Virus record (IMG/VR): IMGVR_UViG_3300043410_000946
Reading direction: 5' to 3' (one strand)
Source: an uncultured virus (IMG/VR IMGVR_UViG_3300043410_000946)
Taxonomy: Duplodnaviria; Heunggongvirae; Uroviricota; Caudoviricetes
DNA length: 35,846 nucleotides
Below the pieces are notes generated by a model, which saw nothing but the letters and a program-made list of their open reading frames with translations, did no database searches and was not told where the DNA came from. Made by a program: the position numbers and the translations under genes. This document shows positions 2,435 to 32,007 of this stretch, piece by piece; positions within the stretch are counted from its first letter, which is position 1; the number at the start of each line of letters is the position of its first letter.

Positions 2435-5400
2435 TTATATCCTCCAATATAACTGTTCCGTCTTTTGTCTTTCCAAATGTAAACTTATATACATTGCCTT
2501 CTTCTAATTTCATGTACGCCTTAGCAAATGCTGTAGGGAATACTGTGACTGAATGCAAGTCTCTAGAAGCATCTGCCAATGTTAGTGAAGCCATTTTCTT
2601 ACCTGCTTTTGTTACTCTAGGTTTAAATGATACCACAAACATATCGTCATCTTTATATGGCAACATCTTGTAATTTAAAAACTTTACAAGAGCACTGTCT
2701 GAGCCTTTGATCTGATCAACAGGGACTGCAGAAACAATTCTATTATCATTAGCAAGAATAATGTATGATGTTCCTGCTTCAATAGTTGTATTCTCTTCAT
2801 CAAAGATTCCAACACTACCAGTTTTATCAAGTAGTTCTACTCTTGACCAACCCTTTGCTCTCTTAATACCCTTGACCATTCCCATAAGAATGAATGATCC
2901 CTTTTCCTCATAGTCTTCTGCTGAAGTTATGAAGGCGTGGTAATGAGATGGAACAGATATGTTAAACTCTGGTAGGTTTAGATATTCATATAAGTGCTCT
3001 TTAATTTCTGAATCATTGCGTGGATTATCAGTGAATGTTGCTGCACCAATAACTCTTAAGGCTTGAAGCGCTCTACTATTGACGCCATTTCCTTTTGTAA
3101 AAGTGAATTCCTCAAGTTCCTTGTAGGATGAGAACGGACGTGATGCGATATATCTCTCTGCAATTTTATCCGATATGAATTTAATGGCCGTAAGTCCGAA
3201 CCTAATTCCTTTACCTTCGATTTTAAAATCTGTATCCGAATCATTAATGTGAGGAAGTTTAATCGAGATTCCCATCCTCTTTGCTTCAATGAGATATTCT
3301 GTTCTGGCATCTTTATCCTTTTCATTTTTTAGTAGTGAGTACATAAACTCTAGCGGGTAGTGGTACTTTAACCATGCTGTCCAGTATGAGAGTGTTGAGT
3401 ATGCAACGGCGTGGGATTTATTGAAGGAGTATCCTGCGTGTGCTTCGAAATCGTGCCATAAGTCCATAGCAGTGTTAGGACTAAGATACTTACTGGCACC
3501 ACTAACGAACTTATCTTTGAAAACATCGAACTCTCTTGCATCCTTCTTCTTTCCAATAATCTTACGAACTTTATCTGCTTCTGACATTGACATTCCACCA
3601 AGGGCAACGCAAGCCTGCATAACCTGTTCCTGATAAAGAATACAACCATATGTTTCTTCTGTAAATTCTTTTAGCACTTGGTGCTTATAGTCAGGATTCT
3701 GTCTTCCATGCTTGATTGCAATATAGTCTTTACCAATTGTATTCATAGCACCTGGACGAACAAGAGCATTAGACGCAGCAAGTTCTGATAGATTCTTTAC
3801 ACCCATCTTAACTAGAAGATTTGTGTATGGTGTTGCTTCACATTGGAATACACCCTTTGTATATCCATCAGAAAGCATTTGATATACATTTGCATCATCC
3901 ATATTAATCTTCAGAAGATCAATCTTCTTACCATCTCGCTCTTCAATAATGTCAAGCGTATCCTTAAGAACAGAAAGTGTCTTAAGTCCCAATGCGTCAA
4001 TCTTAATTAGGCCAATCCGTTCTGCCTCTTCCATATCCACAGCAACAACAGGAATACGCTCATCGCTACCAGTAGAAGATCGTGTTTCCATTGGTGCGAA
4101 TCGGAAGATTGGATCTTTACTAGTGACAACACCAGCAGCGTGAATACCAGTGCCTCTAATACGACCACGAAGTTGTTCGCCATAAATTTCTACCTCTGGA
4201 TATTTCTCACGGAACTCTCTTGTTGAACTTGATGAACAAAAGTCTTCCCATGTATCTACTAACTTTAAAACCTTGTTTACATCTGGCAAAGGAATATTTA
4301 ATACTCGTGCAACATCTCGTACAACACCCTTATCTTTAAATGAAAGGAATGTAGCAATAGACGCAACATGTCGATATTGTCTAACAAGATAATCCTTTAC
4401 TTCTTCACGACGAGAATCTTGGATATCTGTATCGATATCAGGGAAGTCATTACGCTCTGGATTAATAAAGCGGAAGAATAATAGTCCGTGCTTAATAGGA
4501 TCAATATCAGTGATACCAAGTGAGTAACATAGCAATGAACCTGCTGCAGAACCACGACCAGGACCAACCATGATTCCTTCCTTCTTAGCCCACGAAATCA
4601 TATTTCGCACAACAAGGAAGTATGGTCCAAACTTCTTATCCTTGATTACTGCAAGTTCTTCATCTAGGCGGTCAAGGTACTCTTGTGTATCTACTCCACG
4701 CTCCTTCAGTCCAGCAAGTGCTAGTTCCTTTAATTCTTTATCTGGATGCTTGTATTGTACTGGTAGAAGGTCTAGGCCTTCTTGAATACCATAGTCTTCA
4801 ACCTTATCCACAATCTTAAGTGTATTGGCGTACATGTCTTCTCTATCAATACCCTGAGATTCCATGGCTGACTTCATCTCTTCATATGACAGAAGGTGAA
4901 TATCAAACTCATTAAATGTAATCTGACGATCATGACCATAAAGATAGTCAAGTCGCTCCATCATGTCAGTGTACTTCTTTGATTTTTCAAATGTATGTTC
5001 TTTGTCAATCTTGACATGTGTATTAAGAAGCAGTTTAAATTCCTGAACTTCTTTTTGGCTCTTGTCAGAGTGGTGGCAGTCTGGAGTAACTACAAGGTTA
5101 ACGCCAAACTCATCAGCCAAATTAATTAATTGCTTATTGATTTCTGCCTCATTATGTGGCATAACCTCAATGTAGTAGTCATCATTGAATACACGCTTAA
5201 ACCATTCAATGTGATTTTTAGCAACTGCAAATTCATTATTCTCAAGTGCTTTAACAAGTACGCTACTTGGGCATGCAGAGGTAACAATAATACCTTCTGA
5301 ATATTTTTCTAGAATTTCAAAGTCAAATCGTGGCTTCTTGAAGTATCCTTCTGTCCACGCAATTTCATTAATCTTGTTTAGATTTTCTAAACCAATCTTG

Positions 5401-10471: not shown

Positions 10472-10480
10472 ATTATACCA
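10472..10480 (-). promoter_or_regulatory. extended -10 promoter TGGTATAAT
   Basis: Perfect TGn-TATAAT overlapping the upstream stop codon, followed by AGGAG and ATG. Confidence 0.65.
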
Positions 10481-27052: not shown

Positions 27053-27373
27053 TTATTTTCCAGCAAGCAGTGCTGATGGATCTGCAAGTTGGATTCCAGA
27101 TGCTGCATCAATTACTGCATAGACTGTTGGCAAATCAATATTATCTTCTAGTTCTTCTCTTGTTACTGGCTCCTTGACATATTGCTTAAATGCAATTTCA
27201 ACGCAGTCCATGAGGACATCCATTGACTCGTCATTATCTTCTGCAACTGCAGTAAGATCAGCAAAGCGCTTCATAAAAGGCTTAAGCAAAGAGATCTTGA
27301 GTGGTCTAACATCAATAGATGTTCCATCAAGTAATGTGATTGTTTTTACTGCTGATTCTGTCTTTTCTGACAT
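27053..27373 (-). CDS. tail assembly chaperone, short (G-like) form
   Basis: Acidic 106-aa protein directly before the TMP; paralogous to the N-terminal half of 27425-28108; GGAGG SD. Confidence 0.8.
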   Translation of the reverse strand: MSEKTESAVKTITLLDGTSIDVRPLKISLLKPFMKRFADLTAVAEDNDESMDVLMDCVEIAFKQYVKEPVTREELEDNIDLPTVYAVIDAASGIQLADPSALLAGK

Positions 27374-27399
27374 TATTCCTCCATTAGGTTAGTTAGTTA

Positions 27400-27408
27400 A
27401 TTATACCA
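27400..27408 (-). promoter_or_regulatory. extended -10 promoter TGGTATAAT
   Basis: Perfect TGn-TATAAT in the gap between the two chaperone genes. Confidence 0.7.
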
Positions 27409-27424
27409 TAGGCAGGCCTTTGAT

Positions 27425-28108
27425 TTAGCCTACCCTTTCGTATTCCAGACCCATCCCAATACCAAATCCAGCCTTTTGTGCATTAACTCCTTGTAGTGCA
27501 ACAATGTCGTTAGCGTTGGCTGCTTGGCCTTTACTAAATACCCTGGCTTTCATTTCTTCCCAAGCATTTTCCTTGCCTGTATTTTTGTCTAGATCTACTC
27601 CCTGCATTGCTGCAAGAAACTTTTTATGGGCATAATCCTCTTCACGCTTTATATTTAAAATTGCAGTTAACTCCTGCATAGACAAAGATCTTTCTAGTTC
27701 ATCAAAGTCTTTCCAGATACCAAGCAAGAAAACTTCAGACTCTAATTTAGCAAGGTCTAACTCTTCCCAACTCTTGCCACCTTTGACTGCCTGGTCCTTC
27801 ACACTTTCATCTTGCTTCTCATCAATCTTGATTCCTGCAGAATATTCTAAAACTGAATATATAGTCTTTATATCAATTGAGTCCTCAAACACTTCTAGGT
27901 CTTTTGATATTTCTGGACAAAACTGCTTCATGCATATCATTGCACATTCTGACAGTGCTGTTATTGCCTCAATGTCTCCCTGGGCTTTTTTGACATCATC
28001 AAACTTGCCCATGAACTGTTTTAGATATTTTATTTTTAATGGAGAAATCTCAAGTTCTGTGCCATCGATTAGATGCACAGTCCCAATTTGATAGATTTCC
28101 GTAGCCAT
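27425..28108 (-). CDS. tail assembly chaperone, long (GT-like) form
   Basis: Lies between the tail tube and the TMP; N-terminal ~100 aa match the short chaperone, followed by an extra ~125-aa domain. Confidence 0.8.
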   Translation of the reverse strand: MATEIYQIGTVHLIDGTELEISPLKIKYLKQFMGKFDDVKKAQGDIEAITALSECAMICMKQFCPEISKDLEVFEDSIDIKTIYSVLEYSAGIKIDEKQDESVKDQAVKGGKSWEELDLAKLESEVFLLGIWKDFDELERSLSMQELTAILNIKREEDYAHKKFLAAMQGVDLDKNTGKENAWEEMKARVFSKGQAANANDIVALQGVNAQKAGFGIGMGLEYERVG

Positions 28109-28115
28109 ATATATA

Positions 28116-28124
28116 AGTATACCA
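28116..28124 (-). promoter_or_regulatory. extended -10 promoter TGGTATACT, probable leaderless start
   Basis: TGGTATACT-TATATAT-ATG; no SD. Confidence 0.65.
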
Positions 28125-28129
28125 AATAG

Positions 28130-28156
28130 AAAAACCCAGTCCGAAGACTGGGCTTT
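28130..28156 (-). terminator. intrinsic terminator after the major tail gene
   Basis: Minus strand CCCAGTC-TTCG-GACTGGG followed by TTTTTCTATTT (C-UUCG-G tetraloop plus U tract). Confidence 0.9.
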
Positions 28157-28174
28157 CCATATTATTAAATTGTA

Positions 28175-28878: not shown

Positions 28879-28887
28879 AGTATAACA
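28879..28887 (-). promoter_or_regulatory. extended -10 promoter TGTTATACT upstream of the major tail gene
   Basis: TGn-TATACT in the intergenic gap, within an inverted repeat. Confidence 0.6.
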
Positions 28888-31998: not shown

Positions 31999-32007
31999 AT
32001 TATATCA
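31999..32007 (-). promoter_or_regulatory. extended -10 promoter TGATATAAT
   Basis: Perfect TGn-TATAAT just downstream of the capsid hairpin. Confidence 0.65.

Follow-up and report, generated by a model that had tools for sequence, protein, structure and literature searches.

How can a long-tailed phage supply both the short and the long form of its tail assembly chaperone from a locus in which no ribosomal frameshift is apparent? The question is raised by two genes, here called GT (227 amino acids, aa) and G2 (106 aa), in a stretch of 35,846 nucleotides (nt) from an uncultured virus (Caudoviricetes; IMG/VR record IMGVR_UViG_3300043410_000946), the whole of which is referred to below as the window. 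The G/GT frameshift is among the most conserved recoding events in viruses, and the usual argument for its persistence is that it guarantees both a fixed ratio of the two chaperones and an identical N-terminal part in each. A conserved -1 frameshift in the genes that encode tail assembly chaperones in long-tailed phages was reportedly described by Xu, Hendrix and Duda in 2004. From the genes of the window and of its relatives, it is very probable that GT and G2 are the tail assembly chaperones in a hard-wired form for which no ribosomal frameshift is needed. G2 would be the abundant short chaperone G and GT the rare long form, encoded in one reading frame, with both made by ordinary translation.

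Two G parts and one T part between the tail genes

Judged from their sequences, G2 and the G domain of GT are clearly paralogous. BLASTP aligns residues 9-96 of G2 with residues 8-95 of GT at 33 of 90 identical positions (37%; 67% positives; E 5e-19), and profile-profile alignment (hhalign) of 47 G2 homologues with 62 GT homologues returns a probability of 99.9% and an E of 6e-33 over 96 columns. A first-pass annotation of the window had judged the 106-aa protein to be about one third identical to the N-terminal ~100 aa of the 227-aa protein, and both the pairwise alignment and structure prediction bear this out. The AlphaFold models have the same secondary-structure layout, a beta-hairpin followed by four helices, in G2 and in the first 91 residues of GT, with a mean predicted local distance difference test score (pLDDT) of 74.5 for G2 and 76.3 for GT. 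Likewise, both proteins match the same family, phrog_10504 ('unknown function'; E 1.9e-17 for G2 and 2.9e-18 for GT), and residues 131-220 of GT match a separate one, phrog_10474 (also 'unknown function'; E 2e-16). Beyond the G part, the GT model has a helical T region at residues 103-168 (pLDDT ~80-89) and then a low-confidence tail. This tail ends in a conserved motif, GFGIGMGL-Y, that is nearly invariant across the 62 homologues and might serve as a short binding motif, with the tube protein as a possible partner; the region lies in the low-confidence part of the model.

The two genes follow one another on the minus strand in the order 216-aa open reading frame (ORF), terminator-like hairpin, GT, G2, 3081-aa ORF (Table 1), with 28 nt between the end of G2 and the start of the last. 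The annotated major tail protein of Streptomyces phage Patelgo shares 45% identity (E 2e-55) with the 216-aa product, which also matches phrog_885 'major tail protein' at E 7e-6. The 3081-aa product scores 92.8 bits against Pfam PhageMin_Tail (cut-off 33.2), and over its first 600 aa it shares 28% identity (E 7e-70) with the tape measure protein of Patelgo. The first-pass placement of two ORFs between the tail tube and tape measure genes is thereby confirmed by coordinates and by the identity of the flanking genes, and because of this position GT and G2 lie where tail assembly chaperones are normally encoded. This order of major tail gene, chaperones and tape measure gene recurs in the Streptomyces phage loci as annotated. 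The tape measure protein is itself about 1.5 times as long as its Patelgo homologue (~2113 aa, from gene coordinates); given the usual rule of ~0.15 nm of tail length per tape measure residue, 3081 aa implies a very long tail.

At gene level, then, the locus offers a short product and a long product that share an N-terminal part, the long one carrying a T extension. The lambda-type programmed -1 frameshift, which uses a slippery heptamer close to where G ends, was not found in GT or G2. An in-frame X_XXY_YYZ heptamer occurs near the G/T junction of GT in only 14 of 100 unique loci, mostly as poly-A, and none is conserved. Past the G2 stop codon, an alternative-frame ORF of at least 60 aa is present in 0 of 100 unique loci, and the alternative frames across the G2 end of the window run to 31 and 21 aa. 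With G and T in one frame, no conserved heptamer and no such frame after G2, the sequences agree with the earlier proposal that both products may be made without recoding. Further, in two of the loci surveyed below other genes have been inserted between GT and G2, which marks the pair as separable cistrons. In locus L017 the insert holds two genes (positions 3729-4800 of that locus), one 2OG-Fe(II)-oxygenase-like (E 8.5e-5, below the cut-off) and one matching DUF6817 (62.5 bits). In locus L112 (positions 1285-1842) it is a 185-aa Cys/His-rich ORF with DHDH and Cys motifs, read by eye, which looks like an endonuclease VII or HNH-type homing endonuclease.

Frameshifting relatives, environmental loci and the origin of the pair

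If GT is a hard-wired long form, its T part should have counterparts beyond the slip sites of frameshifting phages, and such counterparts exist. A translated search of 50,697 phage records with GT found matches in 130, from 127 Streptomyces and 3 Rhodococcus phages, at one place in each. In all 40 of the records listed, the GT match was joined from two pieces, and in none of the 130 matching cultured-phage records was there a second copy of G. G2 finds the same single G gene in 121 Streptomyces phage records, at 31-36% identity to annotated tail assembly chaperones. The Patelgo record annotates a 116-aa chaperone together with a second chaperone coding sequence (CDS) that is joined from two pieces and has the same start codon, and Rhodococcus phage Francesca carries a joined chaperone CDS as Patelgo does. 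Since a joined two-piece CDS is the usual record form of a programmed frameshift product, the long protein of the window matches the frameshift product. Six-frame reading places the T part of the relatives in the -1 frame relative to G, and the -1-frame peptides of Patelgo and MulchMansion share 48% identity with GT residues 114-227, so the C-terminal part of GT proves homologous to the post-frameshift T segments of actinophages, the comparison that the first-pass annotation had put forward as a check.

The slip site itself is recognisable in several of these relatives. A canonical in-frame -1 heptamer, C_CCA_AAT or C_CCA_AAC, lies at a conserved L-N-D-P-N motif in Patelgo, Jada, Wakanda and two distant contigs from metagenome-assembled genomes (MAGs; L116 and L117), and the heptamer of Francesca is G_GGA_AAA. 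In two members of Samistivirus, MulchMansion (L002) and Daubenski (L156), the G and T frames overlap and the overlap contains no canonical X_XXY_YYZ heptamer. Many records of the Samistivirus group annotate T as a separate 'hypothetical protein'. G2 retains the zero-frame tail that follows the slip site (IQLADPSALLAGK, compared with IKLNDPNLLAAA in Patelgo), a peptide that would belong to G and not to GT, and this fits a hard-wired version of the frameshift system. The consensus of the GT linker ends in SGSxW, and just after the slip Patelgo reads GSGSTW in the -1 frame, which likewise fits such a version.

A single contig could mislead, as the loss or gain of one base at the slip site of a frameshifting G/T gene would mimic a fusion, with G2 left as a decaying pseudogene. 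The survey of environmental loci bears directly on this. Searched with GT, IMG/VR yielded 26 loci. At least 600 IMG/VR stretches matched a profile of the T part; a relative is encoded in 585 of them, and the 80 best were retained. Starting from the most distant member, a further search added 36 loci, and a scan of species-representative genomes contributed 9 MAG contigs. Every locus was classified with profiles of the G and T parts, the fetched loci including repeats. Among L001-L108, a one-frame G+T followed by a second G is present in 103 of 103 usable loci, the rest being three that are cut before G2 and two Streptomyces phages, where T is read in another frame than the only G. Among L109-L153 the fused GT and G2 recur in 41 of 41 usable loci; one more is cut, one has a G piece only, and L116 and L117 (T 44% identical) lack G2 and encode G and T in separate frames. 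Those two contigs and the two Streptomyces phages are the only non-fused cases surveyed. In-frame GT followed by G2 is thus found in 144 of 144 sufficiently complete IMG/VR and MAG loci, which reduce to 101 unique GT-to-G2 regions, and the order GT then G that had been described from the window alone is general among them. A search of 5.8 billion protein clusters (candidates of 124-398 aa) adds 6128 that match GT at E <= 1e-5.

With 101 unique regions that share the arrangement and 6128 matching clusters, it stands as a stable feature of a very large clade of uncultured phages, and error in assembly does not account for it. The idea of an indel from assembly or sequencing has next to no probability left, and the survey refutes it: the regions come from many contigs across which GT identity falls to 50%, the clusters are of matching length, and G2, besides being intact, is better conserved than the GT G domain. 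None of the 120 GT homologue clusters listed, out of the 6128, bears a chaperone name. The named homologues among those listed are called 'hypothetical protein' or, in P0057 and P0098 (one source), 'translation initiation factor 1 (eIF-1/SUI1)', a label that is almost certainly a misannotation. The nine MAG contigs (L109-L117) are labelled Acidimicrobiaceae (two), Nanopelagicales, Bifidobacterium, Flavobacterium, Flavipsychrobacter, Lishizhenia, cyanobacterium and Bacteroidia; labels so inconsistent within this clade are probably the result of mis-binning. The actinobacterial labels on four of the nine are a weak hint on the host.

How the pair came about can be approached through the G parts. 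A quick tree, unrooted and without an outgroup, comprised 118 G domains (63 from GT, 48 G2 and 7 from frameshifting genes) after thinning at 85% identity, which reduced the GT G domains from 148 to 63 and G2 from 141 to 48; the Rhodococcus G gene was left out, its match to the G profile being too short or absent. Each of the three groups falls on one side of a branch (Shimodaira-Hasegawa-like approximate likelihood ratio test values of 87, 98 and 98), and the groups meet in a three-way star whose long stems measure 0.24-0.78 changes per column. Because each paralogue forms its own group, both predate the radiation of the phage clade, and this speaks for a single origin of the arrangement before that radiation. 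It would have arisen once in what became a very large uncultured clade, with the cultured relatives still frameshifting. Three groups without an outgroup do not separate the order of events, or duplication in place from capture; consequently, of the initial claim that G was duplicated and one copy fused in frame to T, the fusion and the paralogy (37%) stand, and the star is compatible with in-place duplication and with acquisition alike. Capture would mean that either the fused GT or G2 is a xenologue from a related phage, after which the resident gene lost its T part. The long stems of the star are in keeping with such an event, as are pairwise identities of ~31-39% among all three groups and the order GT then G, which is not expected from a simple tandem duplication of G. 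It is nevertheless rather unlikely, because GT immediately follows the major tail gene, which is the ancestral position, and starts MAT-x-(I/V)-Y like the G of Streptomyces phages, and because no lineage in an intermediate state was seen among 153 loci; further, GT and G2 track the same phage clades, although only roughly and in a poorly resolved tree.

Conservation within the clade speaks to the division of labour between the two proteins. Over the 37 loci that have all genes, mean pairwise identity is highest for the helical part of T and the major tail protein (0.74 each), followed by the T tail (0.65), the G2 core (0.645) and the G domain of GT (0.52); within GT, conservation is lowest in the linker (0.44). 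G2 is better conserved than the GT G domain in 582 of 666 pairs, and both genes are intact in all loci. This pattern fits G2 as the main chaperone and T as tracking the tube protein. Some of the same figures could be read differently, with G2 as an extra, subfunctionalised chaperone that serves part of the long tape measure protein, and with GT filling both the G and GT roles together with an unseen shorter form, arising for example by proteolysis in the linker. The size of the tape measure protein (3081 aa as against ~2113 aa in Patelgo) would suit this account, as would the low conservation of the linker and G parts that are only 37% identical, fall in clades of their own and could bind different segments. 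We regard it as improbable, given that G2 holds the ancestral free-G position directly before the tape measure gene, has a putative promoter, leader and Shine-Dalgarno sequence like the frameshifting relatives as well as the peptide that follows the slip site, and is the more conserved of the two G parts in those 582 pairs, and given that GT carries no recoding signal.

Start signals and the weighing of the evidence

With no frameshift in GT or G2, the ratio of the products must be set at transcription or initiation, and the signals before the two genes differ. In 99 of 101 unique regions GT is preceded by an extended -10 box whose end lies 5-8 nt from the start codon (6 nt in 81 of them), and a Shine-Dalgarno sequence precedes GT in 1 of the 101, where the GT start is GTG; in the window there is none between the TGGTATACT box and the GT ATG. 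Before G2, an extended -10 box lies within 60 nt upstream in all 101 unique regions and a Shine-Dalgarno-like motif is present in 99. The box consensus, TGNTATAMT, has 9 strict matches in the window where 3.8 are expected, a number reached in 1 of 100 shuffles. Seven of the nine are on the coding strand, and six of those seven are directly upstream of genes as read from the gene map, so that the extended -10 box looks like the main promoter type of the phage or its host. GT is the only gene of the window with a box that abuts its ATG. Among frameshifting relatives, the six with a readable leader have a Shine-Dalgarno sequence in it before their single G gene, as G2 does, with a -10-like box upstream in five of the six; the Rhodococcus locus has neither the Shine-Dalgarno leader of G nor a -10-like box.

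From these separate start signals we infer that initiation is the step that sets the G:GT ratio. The hairpin would terminate transcripts of the gene for the abundant tube protein. Downstream of the hairpin and of the extended -10 box, GT would be made in modest amount from a leaderless mRNA beginning at its ATG, and G2 and tape measure protein in large amount from a second promoter with a ~20-nt leader and a strong GGAGG. It is quite possible, though held here only tentatively, that two cistrons with different modes of initiation (GT leaderless, G2 with a strong Shine-Dalgarno sequence) have in this way replaced the frameshift, moving control of the ratio from elongation to initiation and leaving the two G domains free to diverge (to 37% identity) and to specialise. 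The proteins themselves would then act much as in lambda, where the chaperone work behind the G/GT analogy is said to be that of Xu, Hendrix and Duda (in 2004, 2013 and 2014). By that analogy, the tape measure protein would be coated by G and by the G part of GT, tube polymerisation would begin when the T part recruits the major tail protein, and the virion would contain neither chaperone. Two RNA runs each held 5% of the sampled words, and the RNA-library contigs of relatives cover the major tail gene only; without cover over GT or G2, they are silent on chaperone expression, transcript starts and termination.

Several points tell against this picture as a whole. GT and G2 as proteins, like their ratio and their binding partners, are predictions from the genes. 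A standard sigma-70 scan, which requires a -35 box, did not call the proposed promoter sites, which have the extended -10 element only, and the leaderless-mRNA reading rests on a consensus motif that is conserved among related and therefore non-independent sequences. Leaderless messages are not always poorly translated, and in actinobacteria they are translated well; because they can be, even the direction of the G:GT ratio is inferred. The tree fits duplication in place and capture alike. Known families and folds do not identify the proteins by themselves. No Pfam chaperone model is matched above its cut-off by G2, GT or their homologues: G2 reaches 13.5 bits (E 0.08) against PF23857, Phage_TAC_19, below the 27-bit gathering cut-off, and at E <= 0.1 this model is matched by only 4 of 47 G2 homologues (best 7e-4) and by 0 of 62 GT homologues. 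Solved structures give weak matches, none of them significant when taken alone. Foldseek against the PDB gave HK97 2ob9_A as its top match (E 0.46, TM 0.42), and at the head of 48161 chains stood YqbN 3klu_A, which we take to be a tail chaperone, with a Z of 5.7 over 86 aligned residues; 5ir0_B scored Z 4.7 and 2ob9_B Z 4.5. The whole GT model found no significant Foldseek match in the PDB (2ob9_A at rank 19), and profiles of G2 and of the T part against the sequences of solved structures gave nothing better than E 0.22.

Among predicted viral structures (BFVD), the best match of the GT model is a 215-aa viral protein (E 1e-14, TM 0.70/0.74), and the N15 'Tail assembly protein GT' (E 0.016) and about ten other named chaperones match more weakly. 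Named tail assembly chaperones thus appear to recur, if weakly, among the fold matches of the models. The best other Pfam matches, SGTA_dimer, Rubis-subs-bind and DUF4778, are below cut-off and were set aside as probably spurious.

Table 1. Features of the chaperone locus and related signals in the window (strand relative to the record as given)
Feature	Position	Strand	Basis or remark
Tape measure protein gene, 3081 aa	17779..27024	-	Pfam PhageMin_Tail and Patelgo homology
G2 gene, 106 aa, complete ORF; free-standing short chaperone (G equivalent)	27053..27373	-	ORF and phrog_10504
Shine-Dalgarno GGAGG, 4 nt before G2 start codon	27378..27382	-	Read from sequence
Extended -10 box TGGTATAAT, 26 nt before G2 ATG	27400..27408	-	Pattern match
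GT gene, 227 aa, complete ORF	27425..28108	-	ORF list and G/T homology
GT, G domain, residues 1-96	27821-28108	-	
GT, linker, residues 97-113		-	
GT, helical T, residues 114-175		-	
GT, low-confidence tail, residues 176-227		-	
GT, GFGIGMGL-Y region, residues ~197-227	27428-27520	-	
Extended -10 box TGGTATACT, ends 7 nt before GT ATG	28116..28124	-	Pattern match; candidate promoter
Putative terminator-like hairpin, 13-bp stem then T run, just 3' of major tail gene	28129..28158	-	Consensus scan, pattern match only
Major tail (tube) protein gene, 216 aa	28175..28825	-	Patelgo identity and phrog_885
TGNTATAMT boxes directly upstream of genes, without evident -35	117-125, 10472-10480, 27400-27408, 28116-28124, 28879-28887, 31999-32007	-	

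Known systems and the meaning of a probable hard-wired pair

The locus resembles lambda gpG/gpGT in the position of its genes between the major tail and tape measure genes, and in specifying a short and a long protein with a common N-terminal part and a T extension on the latter. It differs in that the long form comes from its own one-frame gene and the short form from a diverged second gene (37%), and in that the pair has no slippery site. The nearest frameshifting comparison is provided by the Stanwilliamsviridae (~130 kb; Patelgo, MulchMansion and Samisti12) and Francesca, which have orthologous major tail, G, T and tape measure genes and, in the Stanwilliamsviridae, an extended -10 box and a Shine-Dalgarno leader before G. 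Unlike the window phage, they have one G, no second G and T in the -1 frame, with C_CCA_AAT as the heptamer in Loccivirinae and G_GGA_AAA in Francesca.

The same solution without a frameshift is reported for T4-like phages, in which, according to Vladimirov, Gautam and Davidson (2022) as related in PMC10885494, a short chaperone gene is accompanied by a separate fused long gene, the two being expressed separately. The likeness is one of design only, a short gene and a separate longer fused gene. The T4-like phages are myoviruses with baseplate-hub genes, whereas the pair in the window is tandem and co-directional between tube and tape measure genes and close relatives of the window phage still frameshift. 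Pfam scans of GT, G2 and their homologues returned no T4-type family, a statement that covers those scans and no direct comparison with T4 proteins; a BFVD row named 'putative baseplate hub distal subunit' is weak (E 0.45). In Microbacterium cluster EA phages (Jacobs-Sera et al. 2020, PMC7302621) there are two separate ORFs, and a fused GT with a duplicated G is not reported in that paper. More generally, the literature covered, which left out most subscription journals, held no account of a fused GT with a duplicated G in a siphovirus or in Stanwilliamsviridae relatives. The hard-wired principle is therefore not new, given the T4-like phages, but here it appears to have been reached independently in a siphovirus lineage with frameshifting sister groups.

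One practical consequence is that annotation rules based on finding frameshifts will fail on these genomes. In light of the usual argument for the conservation of the frameshift, the biological implications are broader. A large clade, with more than 6000 protein clusters and at least 585 IMG/VR stretches, keeps the genes for both products but has dropped the frameshift, with G parts at 37% identity; neither the coupling that the frameshift provides nor identical G parts would therefore be required. The ratio may be set in another way, through a leaderless message and one led by a Shine-Dalgarno sequence. If so, the clade and its frameshifting sister lineages would together offer a natural before-and-after comparison in which to ask why the frameshift is so conserved elsewhere.

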